Notes under the pieces: generated by a model
What the model was told of the DNA's origin: nothing
The model's input: only the letters and a program-made list of their open reading frames with translations
Database searches by the model: none
Part shown: positions 1,988 through 7,797 of the stretch, one piece after another
Position numbering within the stretch: position 1 is the first letter of the stretch
Layout of the letters: each line of letters begins with the position of its first letter
Origin: Escherichia phage vB_EcolP_P433.1
DNA length: 43,865 nt
Reading direction: 5' to 3' (one strand)
Sequence record: MN384978.1
Made by a program: the position numbers and the translations under genes

Positions 1988-2107
1988 ATGGTGATACCTC
2001 ATTTAATAAGTAATACCACGGCATACACAGGTTACACTAAGCAAATTGTTAAAGAGCAAGGTAACTTAGTTACCTACCGTTTGGCTATGTTGCCTCCCGA
2101 TGGCTGT

Positions 2108-2136
2108 AATGTACTGCGAGTTATTGCCTGTGTCAA
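2108..2136 (-). promoter_or_regulatory. host sigma70-type early promoter (TTGACA-N17-TACATT)
   Basis: -35 TTGACA (rc of 2131-2136), 17-bp spacer, -10 TACATT (rc of 2108-2113); same hexamers as the promoter at 1559-1587. Confidence 0.5.
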
Positions 2137-2202
2137 CACTAAATTTCACTAAGATAGATTATTTATGTGATACCTGTCACAACTGCTAGATAATCCTAGG
2201 TT

Positions 2203-2218
2203 GTCTAACATGTTAGAC
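2203..2218. repeat. perfect 16-bp palindrome GTCTAACATGTTAGAC
   Basis: Read directly; A-for-C variant of the GTCTCAC-NN-GTGAGAC palindrome family found at six other sites. Confidence 0.5.
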
Positions 2219-2359
2219 TAAGGAAAAGCAATAGATACAAGGCTAGGATAGGTTAGGCGGGCTAGGCTTCTGGTGTCCCTCCTACTGCATCTTATTACTA
2301 TTCTCTTTCTTTAGCGGTCTACCGACCGCGACCTATTCGCATCTTATAGCGTAGCTATG

Positions 2360-2650
2360 CAATCACTAAGATAAGGCACTAAGGCTTACTAAGGCACACT
2401 ACTAAGTCACTACTAAGGTAAGAACTAAGGCTTTAACTAAGGCAACCCACTAAGGTTAGCATAAGCTATCCCTCAGGTTTATACCAAGGATATACGAGCG
2501 CGGTGAGTGTAGCGTAACGTAGTGTAGCGAAACGAACAGATATCCCACCAACGTCCACCCTGTCAATACCTCATAAACGCCCTGAATGGCCTCAGGAGTG
2601 CACTAAGAGGCTTCACTAAGGCAATCACCTTGTCCATCACTAAGCCAACC
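2360..2650. repeat. array of at least 11 ACTAAG(G) heptamer repeats (CCTTAGT on the coding strand) in two clusters
   Basis: Copies read at about 2365, 2377, 2389, 2402, 2413, 2424, 2438, 2452, 2601, 2616 and 2640 in a non-coding region; resembles the CCTAAAG heptamer arrays next to T7 terminal repeats. Confidence 0.6.
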
Positions 2651-2844
2651 CTAGGCCTTCCTAGGCCGCCTACCGCGTTCCACCTTGCTAGTACATAGGA
2701 AAGCCTGGGCCTGTACCAGTTCACTAGTACACTCCCAAGGCCACCCTATGGGGGACATCCCGGCGAGGGCGAGGGCGAGACACCTCACACACGCCTATAT
2801 CAAAATTTTGACTTTGGTTAATCCTTGTACAACACTAAGGTTTC

Positions 2845-2940
2845 CTACACTTCAGTCTTAAGTGCACAAGCTATTGCTACAGGAAGAATACAGAAACCTA
2901 CACATACACCTAAGAGGAAACTAATCAATTCTACTAACAT
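2845..2940 (-). CDS. possible small hydrophobic peptide (31 aa, MLVELISFLLGVCVGFCILPVAIACALKTEV)
   Basis: ATG at 2940 preceded by AGGAGG at 5-nt spacing; single predicted transmembrane helix; starts 14 nt after the upstream small ORF. Confidence 0.3.
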   Translation of the reverse strand: MLVELISFLLGVCVGFCILPVAIACALKTEV

Positions 2941-2954
2941 GTTACCTCCTTTGA

Positions 2955-3110
2955 TTACACTAAGTCGAATCCCTTGGGTTGCTTCAGGTAAGCCTGTACA
3001 GTTCCACCAAGAACCTTCTGGCTAGCCAGTGCAGACTCTTCAGTGTCATGTATCTTCCTGAGTACCTTACGTTTGAATGGGCCGACTCCATAAGTATGAA
3101 TCCAAATCAT
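2955..3110 (-). CDS. possible small protein (51 aa, MIWIHTYGVGPFKRKVLRK...)
   Basis: ATG at 3110 preceded by AGGAGG at 4-nt spacing; just downstream of the last tailspike gene. Confidence 0.3.
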   Translation of the reverse strand: MIWIHTYGVGPFKRKVLRKIHDTEESALASQKVLGGTVQAYLKQPKGFDLV

Positions 3111-3134
3111 CAAACCTCCTTAGTACTACATCAA

Positions 3135-3152
3135 GGCAGACCGAAGCCTGCC
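3135..3152 (-). terminator. stem-loop GGCAGGC-UUCG-GUCUGCC 10 nt after the tailspike stop
   Basis: 7-bp stem with UUCG tetraloop on the minus-strand transcript; no strong U-tract, so terminator function is uncertain. Confidence 0.3.
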
Positions 3153-3161
3153 ATTTGTGTA

Positions 3162-4619
3162 TTAGTAAACCAACTTAACCCTGTACGCCACAGCCCTGTT
3201 ACCAGAAGTGCCGACACGAGAAATACGAAGTGTACCCTCAGGGTTTATCTTTGTGCTCACTGGCTCAGCCGCAGTACCATCGATTGATGCAATGGCAACA
3301 ATAGTTGCAGCAGCGAGTGCCTTGGTTCTCAAGCCTACATCGACAAACGTAAGACCATCAGGGATGATAGCAACACCTTCCTGTAAGTCAGGGTGGGTAG
3401 GGCTGTCAACACTTGTTAGCTTACACTGTGGCGTAGTCAGGGTTACGCCTACTACATGAGAGCAGCCACGCAAATGCAGTGAGCTATTCCCCATGTTGCT
3501 AATTAGCATCACGTTATTTGTACGAGTACCCAAGAAGTCACAGTCAGTCGCAGTGATACCCTCCACAGAATCGATAAGGAGATCACCCTGCTGGGCTGAG
3601 TCAATATCATTGAACTGGAATGTTACATTGGTCAGACGCATGTTCTTAGGTGCATTAGCCCCACGCTTAGTGACATACAAACCAAAGTAGCGGCTGTCAG
3701 AGATACAAGTACCATTGATACGCAGGTTGTCACAAGCGCCAACCACTTCGATGCACGCTTCACTGCCAGAGTGGTTTGAAGAGTAGTAACCGAAGTCAAT
3801 CTTCACATCTTTGGCATCCTCCAGATACAGCGCCTGTCCACCTGCAAGGTCACTCATGCAGGAGTTGAACCACGTCCAGCGAGTCCCTATGATCTCAATA
3901 GCCTTACGATTCTTGGCGCTGTTGCCACATGAGTAGACTAGCTCATTTGTGAACATCAAACCCTCTGTGACACTAGAAACACCTGCAGACACGTCTTCAC
4001 TTGCATGGATAGCAGTATAACAATCAGAGTACGTGTTGTTGAAGAAGTGAGAGTTGATCTGTCCACCACCAGAGAATACCGCATAGTTGCTTGCTGCAAA
4101 GCGGTTATTCTGGATAGTAAGCTCAGCTGATGATTTACCTTTCTCACAGAAGACGCACGCATCGTAGAATGCAAACGAGTTGTCGCGCACAGTGATTAGC
4201 GGGCCTTCGATACGGATTGCCATAGTGTTGTTGCTATCCTTTCCGCCACCTACGAAGTTCAGACCTTCGATAACAGTGAATGCCGCACGAGGTATCAGAG
4301 TGGAGCCATTGTGTGTCTTCAATGTTGCACCGTACTTACCATCACTATATAGCCGGATGGCAGATGTAATTATAAGGTCAGTTACAATGTATGGCGTGTC
4401 TTTAGGCGGAACATAGACACCAGCACCCATACCTCCTGCGCGATATGCTGCTTTGATAGCTGCACGGAACGCAGGTGTGTCATCGGTAACACCATCACCC
4501 TTTGCACCAAAATCGGTGACACTAATCTGCTCACTAAGCTTCTCAGGGAGCAGTCTCAGAATAGCTGCATCGTATAGCGCCTTGTATTTCACGAAGGCAG
4601 CACCTAGCTTTTGAATCAT
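3162..4619 (-). CDS. tailspike, probable depolymerase with pectate-lyase-like right-handed beta-helix (485 aa)
   Basis: N-terminal motif ISVTDFGAKGDGVTDDTPAFRAAIKAA typical of beta-helix glycanases; AGGAGGG RBS before the ATG at 4619; position at the genome right end as in SP6/K1-5-type phages. Confidence 0.75.
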   Translation of the reverse strand: MIQKLGAAFVKYKALYDAAILRLLPEKLSEQISVTDFGAKGDGVTDDTPAFRAAIKAAYRAGGMGAGVYVPPKDTPYIVTDLIITSAIRLYSDGKYGATLKTHNGSTLIPRAAFTVIEGLNFVGGGKDSNNTMAIRIEGPLITVRDNSFAFYDACVFCEKGKSSAELTIQNNRFAASNYAVFSGGGQINSHFFNNTYSDCYTAIHASEDVSAGVSSVTEGLMFTNELVYSCGNSAKNRKAIEIIGTRWTWFNSCMSDLAGGQALYLEDAKDVKIDFGYYSSNHSGSEACIEVVGACDNLRINGTCISDSRYFGLYVTKRGANAPKNMRLTNVTFQFNDIDSAQQGDLLIDSVEGITATDCDFLGTRTNNVMLISNMGNSSLHLRGCSHVVGVTLTTPQCKLTSVDSPTHPDLQEGVAIIPDGLTFVDVGLRTKALAAATIVAIASIDGTAAEPVSTKINPEGTLRISRVGTSGNRAVAYRVKLVY

Positions 4620-4703: not shown

Positions 4704-6758
4704 TTATAACCATTCAGGCACAATAACCTCTCCCATTGAGAAGTTTGCTGCCTCACCTTCTCTACTGCACAAACGATACTTCTTATCTACTACTTCCCGT
4801 GTGTCTGTAGAAACTATGTTGTAGCAGATGTTATTAGCTGCTCTATGAACATAAGAATTTACTACTGGCTTACTTCCATCACCTTTTGCACGCGTACCAT
4901 CAATGAAGCAAGATTCTACAAGTAACAGGCCAGCAACTAAGTTGTTGCCTGTATCCCAGTCCAATATAGTCTCATTAAACTCTACACGACCTTGTGCATA
5001 AGTGGTTCCACCAGAGTAGCCTGCAAATCGACGAACGATACCACCTTTATTCTTGATGTAACTACGAGTATTGAAAGTGACAAGGTTCTTGTATTCAATA
5101 TCCATATTACATTCAAAACCTATAATACAACTTGCATATTCGTTACGATAACCTATATAAGCATCAACCTTACAACCTTTAGAGTAAGCAGGTGTAAGTT
5201 TTACAATAGGAACTTCACGAGTTGTTGCATCATGATATGATAGCGCGTATTCATAGCGGGCATTCTTTCCATGGAATACACTCCCTGTGAAGTCTATCAG
5301 TGTAGGCATCACAAAGTCACGCAATATAGGTGACACACTAGTCTTGAAGTTATTCTTGTAAGATACAATATTCAAGGTAACAGCATCAGGCCAGTGGATC
5401 TCTGATTCCACTATAATCTTACGAGGAAGATGCAATGCGCGAGGTTGAACCGGATTACCAGATGATAACACATTATCAGAACGGCACAGAATAAGGTCAA
5501 CAATACCTGTCTTTCCTTCTGGTACTCGTATGCTACCACCTTTGACAATAATGTCACCTTTGTGCTCACCATAATCAGTACGAACACCAAAGGACATAAT
5601 GTTGGAGTTAATGATACGAGTCTGCTCATCGAAGGCACCAGTGCCAACTAAGACACCTTCTTTTACAGTAGAATTATCTACTAGAACTCCAGAGGAGCCG
5701 TAGTGTAAGTGAAAGCTAGGGACAACAGAGTCACGAAGTACCACATCACGGCAGTAGTTACCATCAGCGAAACGCCATCCAGAACCACATGTGCAACCTA
5801 AGAAGGAATGCTTCAATGTATATTCCATAAGGATGGAATAACGAGAGTTATTATCAGGCTGAGGCCCGCCACTCATATTAACATGCCAGTTGACACCATA
5901 TGTATCTCCGCTTGATAATATGCTACGATCAACAGGTACTGAAATGTTACTATCAACCACGCCGTACACATTTACCTTAGAGCGAGTAATGTTGAATGCC
6001 CACTTTGTAACTGCGCCTTTGAACTTAGGAAGCACAACAGTGATGTACGATGCAGGCAACTTATACAAGGTGCAAGTAACACCGCTATTATATGTGTTCT
6101 TGAATGTATAAGCCAGATTACCTGACTTAGTCATCAAGTTAACCTCACATTTCATTCTGGCATCATATCTACCATTAAGGTAGCGATAAAGATCAACCTC
6201 TTGGCTGGTGATCTTAACCAAACTATTATCCCAGCCATCAAGACTTTCTGACACATTAAGTTGATTACTTAACTCTGTCAAAGGGTAGTTAATTACAGTG
6301 AAAGACTTAGACACATCAGTTCGCTCATCTGCCAATGTAACATTGCCACCTGTTAGGTTAAATGTCAAATTACTCAAGTCCATGTCACCATATAGTGTCA
6401 CGTCCTTGTTGATATTAATCTCGGTAGGTACAGAAGCGTAAACCTTGATACCATAACCTCTCAGTTGAGAAAATACCGTATTTAGGCCATCTGCATCTTT
6501 GGTAGGTAAGAGGGTAAGAAGATCAACACCTTTGGATGTGTCAATAATTGAAGTCCACTTACCTTCACCAATACCTTCTGTGAAGGGACTTGAACCGGGA
6601 TTCACAGTATGAGGGTAATCACCAGACCATACATAAATGTCTCTATTAAACAGGAACATATCAGCCATGCCTTGTGCCACACCACCACCCTCAAAGGTGT
6701 TTAATGTTGGTACATTAAGACTGAGTACATTACGTCCTGCACGTGTTAATCCAGCCAT
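4704..6758 (-). CDS. tailspike / receptor-binding protein (about 684 aa)
   Basis: Large Ser/Thr/Asn/Gly-rich ORF; the track start at 6818 is TTG, so the start is placed at the ATG at 6758 with TAGGAG RBS; directly downstream of the phage promoter at 6838-6860. Confidence 0.7.
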   Translation of the reverse strand: MAGLTRAGRNVLSLNVPTLNTFEGGGVAQGMADMFLFNRDIYVWSGDYPHTVNPGSSPFTEGIGEGKWTSIIDTSKGVDLLTLLPTKDADGLNTVFSQLRGYGIKVYASVPTEININKDVTLYGDMDLSNLTFNLTGGNVTLADERTDVSKSFTVINYPLTELSNQLNVSESLDGWDNSLVKITSQEVDLYRYLNGRYDARMKCEVNLMTKSGNLAYTFKNTYNSGVTCTLYKLPASYITVVLPKFKGAVTKWAFNITRSKVNVYGVVDSNISVPVDRSILSSGDTYGVNWHVNMSGGPQPDNNSRYSILMEYTLKHSFLGCTCGSGWRFADGNYCRDVVLRDSVVPSFHLHYGSSGVLVDNSTVKEGVLVGTGAFDEQTRIINSNIMSFGVRTDYGEHKGDIIVKGGSIRVPEGKTGIVDLILCRSDNVLSSGNPVQPRALHLPRKIIVESEIHWPDAVTLNIVSYKNNFKTSVSPILRDFVMPTLIDFTGSVFHGKNARYEYALSYHDATTREVPIVKLTPAYSKGCKVDAYIGYRNEYASCIIGFECNMDIEYKNLVTFNTRSYIKNKGGIVRRFAGYSGGTTYAQGRVEFNETILDWDTGNNLVAGLLLVESCFIDGTRAKGDGSKPVVNSYVHRAANNICYNIVSTDTREVVDKKYRLCSREGEAANFSMGEVIVPEWL

Positions 6759-6837
6759 ATAATCTCCTATTACTTCCCAACCCTCACCATGAAGATTGGC
6801 TAGTAATAGGCCGCTCAAAAGAACGGCACTATCTTAT

Positions 6838-6860
6838 CCCTCCTATAGTGTCCAGTAAAT
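6838..6860 (-). promoter_or_regulatory. phage RNAP promoter ATTTACTGGACACTATAGGAGGG
   Basis: Read as reverse complement on the plus strand; 23-nt match to the SP6-type core GACACTATAG; upstream of the first tailspike gene. Confidence 0.75.
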
Positions 6861-6889: not shown

Positions 6890-7087
6890 TTAATTGTATC
6901 CGCGTTCTAGCGAAAGAATGTACAAACCTAATTTTGTAGCGTCAGGCTTACTGAAGCAGACCTTATCGTCCACCTCGTAAACTGCCGTCAGCGTCGGCTT
7001 CAGTGGCCTTACCTTTGGAGTCTCTGGTAACTCCGTCTGACACCCTGAAGTGATCAGCGAACCAATCAGCAGGGTTGTCGCTAGCAT
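6890..7087 (-). CDS. small lipoprotein, candidate o-spanin (65 aa from the internal ATG)
   Basis: MLATTLLIGSLITSGC is a signal peptide plus lipobox-like Cys, followed by a Pro-rich stretch (LPETPKVRPLKPT); GAGG RBS before the ATG at 7087; lies in a different frame overlapping ORF 6963-7184. Confidence 0.4.
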   Translation of the reverse strand: MLATTLLIGSLITSGCQTELPETPKVRPLKPTLTAVYEVDDKVCFSKPDATKLGLYILSLERGYN

Positions 7088-7176
7088 GATTCGCCTCACT
7101 CTGTGCCTCCTTCTCTTCCTTCTTCTTCTTAGCGGCAAGCAGCAGACCAATAAGGCCTGCCAATAACTCAAGCACC

Positions 7177-7326
7177 TTATTCACAAGTGATTACTTGGCA
7201 TACCACGTCAGTGACGGAACCTTCCGTACCTTCACCAAGGTCTACACCAAGACCTACAGAGACAAGTGCAATCACCAGTGCAATCAATGCACCTACCACC
7301 TTCTTAGACTTAAACAGCTTTTTCAT
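7177..7326 (-). CDS. small membrane protein (49 aa, MKKLFKSKKVVGALIALVIALVSVGLGVDL...), possible holin/antiholin or spanin N-terminal part
   Basis: Not in the ORF track; ATG at 7326 preceded by AGGGAG RBS; one clear transmembrane helix; immediately downstream of the endolysin gene. Confidence 0.4.
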   Translation of the reverse strand: MKKLFKSKKVVGALIALVIALVSVGLGVDLGEGTEGSVTDVVCQVITCE

Positions 7327-7434: not shown

Positions 7435-7797
7435 TTACCATCGTGCACACCCATCACGTACATCAATATGGGTGAAGGAATTATACTTACCAATACCATA
7501 CTTGCCTTGGTATTTACTAGTAAGATACTTATGCACTTCAGATGGTGAGATGCCAGACACTTTAATATCAGCAGCCTTACCAGTAAGATGCATAGAGTTC
7601 TTGGCCCCGCCCACCTTAGCATTGTGCTTGGCACAGCGATGACCAGAGGTAATAACCACAGGAGCACCAAAGTGCTCACGAACATCTGTGACTACCTGTA
7701 GTAACTCAGCATCAACAGTGGATGTACCGCACCCACAACGGCAAGCGAACTCTTTACGCTTGAAGTATTTGTTAAGCACTATACTACTCCTAGGCAT
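7435..7797 (-). CDS. endolysin, peptidase M15 (zinc D-Ala-D-Ala carboxypeptidase-like) family
   Basis: FKRKEFACRCGCG...ITSGHRCAKHNAKVGGAKNSMHLTGKAADI matches the Peptidase_M15_3 signature. Confidence 0.8.
   Translation of the reverse strand: MPRSSIVLNKYFKRKEFACRCGCGTSTVDAELLQVVTDVREHFGAPVVITSGHRCAKHNAKVGGAKNSMHLTGKAADIKVSGISPSEVHKYLTSKYQGKYGIGKYNSFTHIDVRDGCARW

Follow-up and report, generated by a model that had tools for sequence, protein, structure and literature searches.

Two small genes at the right end of the unique sequence of Escherichia phage vB_EcolP_P433.1 (MN384978.1) are almost certainly real late genes, as judged by comparison with related sequences. They encode products of 51 and 31 amino acids (aa) and are probably genuine, translated and non-essential accessory genes at the distal end of the last Vectrevirus late transcript, the first specifying a soluble mini-domain and the second an inner-membrane peptide. 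The analyzed stretch (the window, 43,865 nucleotides) covers the entire genome, circularly permuted, of a Vectrevirus (SP6/K1-5 group, Autographiviridae; T7 supergroup), in which all genes lie on the minus strand, the coding strand. Its nearest records are those of phage PSK8 and the vB_EcoP_B/C/D/R series, with which it is approximately 88-90% identical across roughly half of the right-hand 12 kb. An earlier note on this DNA had proposed two ATG-initiated open reading frames (ORFs) at 2955-3110 and 2845-2940 on the minus strand, separated by 14 nt, and our analysis verified both ORFs as well as the spacer (2941-2954). The proposal that they occupy the extreme right end of the gene map was likewise verified. 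The K1-5 record aligns with its first base at window position 2778, and the annotated 'redundant repeat' of mutPK1A2 begins at the position homologous to the start of the direct terminal repeat in the window. Since the terminal repeat begins near 2780, positions 2845-3110 constitute the extreme right end of the unique sequence, and the 51-aa and 31-aa ORFs are the last ORFs ahead of the repeat.

Translation is indicated by the ribosome-binding sites. Each of the two ORFs is preceded by a perfect AGGAGG Shine-Dalgarno (SD) sequence, as the earlier note had claimed, although the distance to the ATG is 4 nt in each case and not 4-5 nt. The same spacing is found in front of the capsid, scaffold and tailspike genes. 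Only 10 sites of the type AGGAGG-N3-8-ATG exist in the 43.9-kb genome, all of them on the coding strand, compared with 2.1 ± 1.5 in shuffled sequences. Two of these sites belong to the small ORFs, and seven of the remaining eight start real late genes, among them those for the capsid, the scaffold, a 1267-aa internal protein, a tailspike and a holin. Two such sites 170 nt apart, each starting an ORF, are not a product of chance. A TTG one codon 5' of the ATG of the 51-aa ORF would give a product of 52 aa, but this start was judged unlikely because it lies too near the SD. A nested ORF of 35 aa (2984-3091) and two antisense ORFs on the plus strand (2825-3025 and 2979-3287) were rejected as spurious, as they are not kept in diverged relatives. 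The positions of all features are listed in Table 1.

Table 1. Positions of the small genes, their signals and other features in the window.
Feature	Sequence	Position	Strand	Remarks
51-aa gene	MIWIHTYGVGPFKRKVLRKIHDTEESALASQKVLGGTVQAYLKQPKGFDLV	2955..3110	-	phrog_3955; predicted small soluble beta-beta-alpha-beta protein
31-aa gene	MLVELISFLLGVCVGFCILPVAIACALKTEV	2845..2940	-	predicted single-pass membrane mini-protein; G11xxxG15 motif
Shine-Dalgarno of 51-aa ORF	AGGAGG	3115..3120	-	4 nt 5' of the ATG
Shine-Dalgarno of 31-aa ORF	AGGAGG	2945..2950	-	4 nt 5' of the ATG
Heptamer	CTTAGTG	2958..2964	-	supplies the final codons (L-V-stop) of the 51-aa ORF; bounds the 31-aa module upstream
Heptamer	CTTAGTG	2833..2839	-	5 nt past the 31-aa ORF's stop codon; downstream module boundary
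Conserved box	AACCAAAGTCAAAATTTTGATATAGGCGTGTGTG	2786..2819	.	abuts the terminal repeat; outside genes, marks the end of the slot
Start of direct terminal repeat	TCTCGCCCTCGCCCTCGCC	2762..2780	-	K1-5 alignment and mutPK1A2 annotation
Conserved hairpin, 7 bp, UUCG loop		3135..3152	-	follows the tailspike stop codon and precedes the first SD
Nearest upstream SP6-type phage promoter	TACTGGACACTATAG	6843..6857	-	putative source of the late transcript over both tailspikes and the small ORFs
Tailspike gene, first		4704-6818	-	
Tailspike gene, second, 485 aa		3162-4619	-	K1-5 gp47-type N-terminus and pectate-lyase-like domain PF12708
Holin, phrog_920, 64 aa		11499-11693	-	E 5e-27; perfect SD; far from the endolysin
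Holin, phrog_4712, 49 aa		7177-7326	-	beside the endolysin
M15 endolysin		7435-7797		
Rz-like spanin, 64 aa		6890-7084	-	lipoprotein-type; LITSGC lipobox; phrog_8971

The idea that both are genuine translated small accessory genes gained support, for both frames, from frame conservation and codon-substitution analysis in relatives. Homologues of the 31-aa product were found only in mutPK1A2, K1A and PSK8 (3 of 50,697 phage records); they share 81-87% aa identity with it, and the frame is intact in all three. The pairwise ratio of nonsynonymous to synonymous differences per site (pN/pS) was 0.10-0.35 in the annotated frame versus 0.5-2.5 in the other two frames. Minimal changes at the first, second and third codon positions numbered 5, 2 and 9, respectively, with third positions in excess. 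The aa changes were conservative (L/I/M, V/I) or terminal, and the pattern G11-x-C13-x-G15-x-C17 was invariant. Judged from these substitutions, the 31-aa ORF is coding. The earlier note had also described its product as a single hydrophobic helix, which agrees with the best mean Kyte-Doolittle value of 2.64 over 17 residues. Searches of the peptide against Pfam and PHROG gave sub-threshold noise only, and its exact sequence was not found in a collection of 15 billion proteins. A host origin of the 31-aa cassette was rejected, as no match was obtained in 5,426 E. coli genomes nor elsewhere in phages.

The product of the 51-aa gene matches phrog_3955 with an E-value of 1.2e-23, its residues 1-47 aligning with positions 1-47 of the 48-position profile, and tblastn gave matches in 831 phage records, including Vectrevirus, T1-like Drexlerviridae, Webervirus, rV5-like and G7C-like phages. 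There is no doubt that it represents a protein family, with members in the genomes of hundreds of unrelated phages. An identical protein is on record for phage vB_EcolP_P433.1 (P4331_7), and the homologues mutPK1A2 p62, vB_EcoP_B B_34 and VEc3 vec3_57 are annotated as 'hypothetical protein', with identities of 98% to B_34 and 82% to VEc3_57. The interpretation in the earlier note has to be qualified in that the 51-aa gene is already annotated as hypothetical in relatives and included in phrog_3955. The 31-aa gene has an annotation in PSK8 alone (PSK8_00022). Comparison of 13 distinct Vectrevirus alleles gave pN/pS values of 0.11-0.25 at 0.6-0.8 synonymous differences per site (pS), a range at which the 51-aa ORF is to be regarded as under strong purifying selection. 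It contains the core motif I-W-x-H-T-Y-G-x-G ... A-x-x-S-Q-x-V-L-G-G, whose residues form invariant columns of the alignment.

A confident AlphaFold (AF2) model of the 51-aa protein displays a beta-beta-alpha-beta arrangement with a mean predicted local distance difference test (pLDDT) score of 84.7. Neighbors of this fold among viral models (BFVD), family members included, reach a template modeling (TM) score of approximately 0.8, and all of them are uncharacterized except one named MazZ-domain protein. A PDB fold search with the model returned nothing better than E 2.5. In longer relatives (P0017, P0025), the same domain forms the N-terminus of PF04447 dATP/dGTP pyrophosphohydrolases, and it also begins other small proteins in further phages. 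A 90% cluster that joins the 51-aa protein with Paramuribaculum proteins of 350-400 aa was taken as a clustering artefact and disregarded. The family phrog_3955, widespread in coliphages, is thus predicted to be represented here by a basic, soluble mini-domain with a beta-beta-alpha-beta fold, and we infer that this 51-aa product serves as a small binding module.

The position of the 31-aa gene was compared among relatives using viral and metagenomic contigs that contain the conserved box AGTCAAAATTTTGATRTAGGCGTG, together with the annotated ends of SP6, K1-5, mutPK1A2, vB_EcoP_B, PSK8 and VEc3; this set comprised 33 related loci with 27 distinct right ends. The right end has a modular layout: the tailspike gene and, usually, a gp48-like ORF precede the hairpin, after which a 51-aa module and then a last mini-ORF may or may not be present, and the box followed by the terminal repeat closes the series. 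When the 27 distinct right ends were aligned, the 31-aa ORF was located between a CTTAGTG/SD joint and the AACCAAAGTCAAAATTTTGAT box beside the terminal repeat. The mini-ORF in this last slot varies between otherwise close phages, and 10 families were found at the same position: family A (the window type, in the window, mutPK1A2, K1A and PSK8), family MKDLLLALLCTACIYGPLLVYLYLAGIILV (vB_EcoP_B and two contigs), family C (MYIPMEAVVGIACLLVGFVIGLIAQ, which is SP6 gp52, plus variants), family MDKITIDKLTYYLLWAGCILNVTGFILGLFMK, family MLYIMVGSLWVIMAFFFLAWLLGWRPSCS, family F (K1-5 gp49, MLKDGWVSYDPTDPKNWLQVIAIACAGSLLAALMYSLWMYTK), family MKGYDPIQFIFIFVALELAALGLVCGYYLVFG, and three further families, one hydrophobic and two hydrophilic.

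Eight of the 10 slot families possess a 17-residue window with a Kyte-Doolittle value of at least 1.9, while only 13% of the ATG-initiated ORFs of 25-45 aa on the coding strand of the window reach 1.8 (binomial p ~3e-6). Family C, which includes SP6 gp52, shows a pN/pS of 0.22 at a pS of 0.58, and family F is almost invariant, with 8 variants on more than 20 contigs. From this enrichment, the selection in family C and the near-invariance of family F, it follows that the slot is selected to encode a membrane helix and not a particular sequence. On the basis of these alignments, the right-end small ORFs of SP6-like phages are a positionally conserved, sequence-variable set consisting mostly of membrane peptides. 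The V-A-I-A-C25 stretch of the 31-aa peptide resembles a lipobox; however, its reading as a lipoprotein or o-spanin was rejected, since the first seven residues (MLVELIS) lack Lys and Arg, the mature part would comprise 7 residues only, and the motif shifts within the helix among families A, C and F. In one contig of the set (L015, IMGVR_UViG_3300045988_001199), a run of 33 T interrupts the slot ORF approximately 60 nt before the conserved box and gives a poly-Phe tail; this run is probably an assembly or sequencing artefact, otherwise a slippage-prone tract.

Alternatively, the membrane mini-ORFs could be translated but young and near-neutral, with the resident SD turning any recombined short sequence into an ORF whose hydrophobic product is tolerated, i.e., de novo birth. 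Each family is indeed an ORFan limited to the slot, family A is as rare as described above and occurs in no E. coli genome, most slot families have no PHROG, and an SD-like backbone exists even without an ORF. Furthermore, family D displays a pN/pS of 1.06, a value that is based on 5 changes only, and the peptides are rich in cysteine, a composition typical of random-sequence ORFs. However, purifying selection in families A and C was seen in the correct frame only, the frequency of hydrophobic families is far above that of random same-strand ORFs, and family F hardly varies. We therefore regard neutrality of the mini-ORFs as improbable. A related scenario, to which we would give little credence but slightly more than to neutrality, is that the slot is a cradle in which the resident SD, flanked by heptamers, repeatedly captures or creates unrelated single-helix ORFs of 25-45 aa by short-repeat recombination, and in which selection retains those that tune membrane potential or lysis timing. 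If true, it would make de novo or cassette-like birth of functional microproteins observable in a lytic phage.

The two small genes behave as separate modules. PSK8 carries the membrane ORF without the 51-aa ORF, and VEc3 and three contigs (L008, L013, L027) carry the 51-aa ORF without the membrane ORF. Between the window and mutPK1A2, the 51-aa ORF is identical at 155 of 156 positions, while the adjoining 31-aa ORF is identical at 85 of 96, and the hairpin region upstream is diverged as well. Because the divergence steps sharply in the 14-nt spacer, a mosaic joint can be placed there, and the 51-aa module looks like a recently exchanged patch. Every module joint in the relatives contains CTTAGTG(TAA) followed by AAAGGAGGT, which makes CTTAGTG a possible recombination joint for the gain and loss of cassettes. 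The distribution of the modules among the right ends indicates that the 51-aa and membrane-peptide modules are gained, lost and swapped independently.

A further alternative is that the region is not coding at all. The hairpin, the heptamers and the AGGAGG-like motifs might be cis elements for concatemer processing, packaging or mRNA 3'-end stability, with the ORFs being incidental. In agreement with this, the ORFs lie within a CTTAGTG array: the heptamer occurs 20 times in the window versus 7.1 expected, and 10 copies are found in one orientation (minus strand) in 2035-2964, the concatemer-junction and terminal-repeat region. In addition, the hairpin is conserved with covariation, and an orphan SD is present in one contig (L014). 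These elements do not account for a 51-aa ORF that belongs to a protein family of unrelated phages, and neither the frame-specific synonymous excess nor the enrichment of transmembrane helices is explicable by a DNA element. A structured RNA was ruled out, since no Rfam covariance model matched in 2000-3400 at E <= 1 and the 396-nt region folded no better than shuffled sequences (z = 0.12). A purely non-coding region is therefore extremely unlikely.

The window contains 11 SP6-type promoters of the form TAC(T/C)GGACACTATAG, all on the coding strand. A position weight matrix (PWM) built from these 11 promoters revealed no further SP6-type promoter between 6857 and 2000, where the best score was -9.8 compared with 28-47 at the real sites. 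Since no promoter separates position 6857 from the two small ORFs, they appear to be the 3'-terminal cistrons of the last late transcript, and their presumed late expression would fit a membrane- or lysis-related role better than one in early host takeover. Transcription would start at the promoter at 6857 and run through both tailspike genes, and each small ORF would be translated independently from its own perfect SD. The 31-aa peptide would be inserted into the inner membrane via the signal recognition particle (SRP) with YidC or SecYEG, with YohP as a precedent. Late in infection it would build up in the cytoplasmic membrane, self-associate via its GxxxG motif and lower or tune the membrane potential, thereby modulating the trigger time of the phage's holins. 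Holin triggering is sensitive to membrane potential. A function of the 31-aa peptide as a late modulator of membrane energization or lysis timing, by analogy with what has been suggested genetically for T7 gene 19.5, is put forward here as a tentative possibility. The interchangeability of unrelated helices in the slot favors such a generic membrane property over a specific protein interface.

A specific interface is what the most serious competing explanation assumes, according to which the 31-aa peptide and its slot-mates bind a particular host or phage membrane protein, either for superinfection exclusion or to block a membrane-bound defense or uptake system, and turn over in an arms race. 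The slot is hypervariable among phages that are otherwise approximately 88-90% identical, it adjoins the host-range (tailspike) modules, and the GxxxG motif can be read in four of the seven membrane slot families. Such motifs are equally compatible with pairing to a different helix in a target, which is seen in bacterial small-protein regulators. On the other hand, the type of peptide is independent of the type of spike: the peptide is a different one in each of the three endosialidase phages K1-5, mutPK1A2 and vB_EcoP_B, whereas the window phage and PSK8, which have other spikes, share one. The presumed late expression would be poorly timed for counter-defense, a fast lytic cycle gains little from exclusion, and unrelated sequences in a single slot speak against a conserved specific target. 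Specific binding is thus an unlikely explanation, though a less remote one than neutral ORF birth.

Several observations weigh against the interpretation of the small ORFs as translated genes with a late membrane function. The synonymous excess in the 31-aa frame is derived from three comparators that are not independent of each other, with modest binomial p-values of 0.0025-0.06. In about 10 of the 27 distinct right ends of relatives, the slot lacks a membrane ORF, and two of the slot families encode hydrophilic products. SD-like sequences remain in 'empty' slots, namely AAAGGAGGTCAC without an ORF in L014 and AAAGGTGGTCAC in VEc3, and such slots keep the hybrid CTTAGTGTAACCAAAGGTGGTCAC, as expected either after deletion between repeats or if the SD-like motif belongs to the backbone; part of the SD signal may thus be a property of the DNA backbone. 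The 31-aa ORF lies 4.2 kb from the endolysin gene, and its product has no charged C-terminal tail typical of holins. Since a full lysis set is encoded elsewhere in the genome (two holin-family genes, endolysin and spanin), the 31-aa peptide is not needed for lysis. Finally, no sequence similarity links it to T7 gp19.5 (phrog_2193).

If the slot peptides do modulate lysis timing or membrane energization, they would offer a simple, exchangeable means of adjusting the burst size and the latent period of a phage group that is used therapeutically against encapsulated E. coli, and the slot would be a safe insertion site for payloads. Independently of function, the annotation is corrected, as the 31-aa gene has been overlooked in most relatives. 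The interest is nevertheless modest, since both genes would be non-essential accessories.

Among the neighboring elements, the stem-loop at 3135-3152 proposed in the earlier note was verified and reads GGCAGGC-UUCG-GUCUGCC on the coding strand. A hairpin is found at the same place in 27 related loci, with the arm variants GGGCAGAC/GTTTGCTC, GGGCTGGC/GTTGGCCC and GGGTTGGC/GTTGACCC, and the change from C-G to T-A is compensatory. A role as terminator was rejected because the T-rich tail sits on the plus strand and no U-run follows the hairpin on the coding strand. In most relatives, CTTAGTG flanks the hairpin, which separates the tailspike or gp48 gene from the small-ORF modules.

The conserved box, for which exact-pattern matches were found in 15 viral and 10 metagenome contigs, is kept almost base for base in SP6, K1-5 and all relatives compared, and is presumably a concatemer-junction element. 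It contains a perfect 12-bp palindrome, TCAAAATTTTGA, at 2800-2811, approximately 20 nt short of the terminal repeat; this palindrome is a candidate site of concatemer processing or of packaging (compare the M-hairpin of T7). The CTTAGTG array looks analogous to the CCTAAAG/CCTAAGG arrays beside the T7 terminal repeat (L022 2620-2850).

The gp48-like ORF (MPLIKSVKQ..., 47-51 aa), which in SP6, K1-5, mutPK1A2, PSK8, VEc3 and most contigs comes after the last tailspike gene or overlaps it, was not found by tblastn in the window, including 3111-3161. For both tailspike bodies the closest genomes provide poor coverage (<=61% of the right 12 kb in megablast), and the spike pair of the window phage has no counterpart in the phage collection. 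The lysis genes are dispersed in a manner that matches the description of the SP6-like phage KBNP1315 (PMC4640515). A membrane-anchored ORF of 73 aa (phrog_9219) overlaps the spanin gene out of frame within 6890-7184 on the minus strand, an embedded arrangement that recalls Rz/Rz1.

Compared with known systems, the 51-aa ORF is a full-length member of the phrog_3955 small proteins, which include mutPK1A2_p62, B_34, VEc3_57 and P4331_7. The Eaa/DUF550 (MazZ-like, PF04447) proteins have an N-terminal domain with the same predicted fold; in contrast to them, the 51-aa ORF stands alone without the pyrophosphohydrolase domain.

The 31-aa peptide shares its small size, single transmembrane helix and absence of a soluble domain with YohP of E. 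coli (27 aa) and the type I toxin peptides. For YohP, insertion by SRP together with YidC or SecYEG and a lowering of the proton motive force have been described (PMC7549839, PMC12719787). Unlike these proteins, the 31-aa peptide is phage-encoded, and it shows no sequence relationship to them and no sign of an antisense RNA regulator. Holins, represented here by the phrog_920 and phrog_4712 members, are likewise small, membrane-embedded and late, and form a highly diverse class whose members fulfil one task with unrelated sequences. The 31-aa peptide differs from them in that it has no charged C-terminal domain (its C-terminus is K-T-E-V) and no match to a holin profile, and it is not located beside the endolysin gene.

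T7 gene 19.5 (49 aa) offers a positional parallel. Like the 31-aa gene, it precedes the right terminal repeat as the final gene, is equipped with a strong SD and adjoins heptamer repeats and concatemer-processing elements; in contrast, it has its own promoter, phiOR, whereas no promoter for the 31-aa ORF was found by PWM in 2000-3600. T7 gp19.5 is predicted to span the membrane and is non-essential, and it was repeatedly mutated in adaptations to the loss of the holin, of the endolysin or of the lytic activity of gp16, which led the authors to suggest that it acts secondarily, either like a holin or in the timing of lysis (PMC2680503). In the window, gp19.5 is matched best by the 49-aa phrog_4712 'holin' ORF, aligned at 7183-7272, and not by the 31-aa ORF. 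This 49-aa protein resembles the C-terminal half of T7 gp19.5 (L022 2390-2539), with the motif VVCxxxTC and a BLASTP E-value of 7e-4, and T7 gp19.5 matches the phrog_4712 profile at E 0.03. If this relation is real, it supports the published suggestion that T7 gp19.5 acts as a second holin.

The closest parallels to the 31-aa gene are SP6 gp52 (25 aa, NP_853612, phrog_37692) and K1-5 gp49 (42 aa, YP_654150), which sit in this slot too: the conserved hairpin and the CTTAGTG-AAAGGAGGT joint precede them, and the AACCAAAGTCAAAATTTTGAT box and the terminal repeat follow directly. Each of them has a strong SD and a single transmembrane helix, as does the 31-aa ORF, although K1-5 gp49 carries an extra hydrophilic N-terminus of 18 residues. 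They have been annotated since 2003-2004, and table entries were the only mentions of them in the literature searched. No significant similarity of the 31-aa peptide to SP6 gp52, K1-5 gp49 or T7 gp19.5 was detected by tblastn. A 12-nt in-frame stretch, ATAGCTTGTGCA (I-A-C-A), is common to window positions 2863-2880 and K1-5 (L021 3541-3558), and SP6 gp52 has ATCGCTTGT (I-A-C); the shared I-A-C-A stretch may go back to a common ancestor or mark a recombination joint. Taken together, the 51-aa gene is a member of an already catalogued family and not new, and the 31-aa gene is a new, rare member of the positionally defined set typified by SP6 gp52 and K1-5 gp49.

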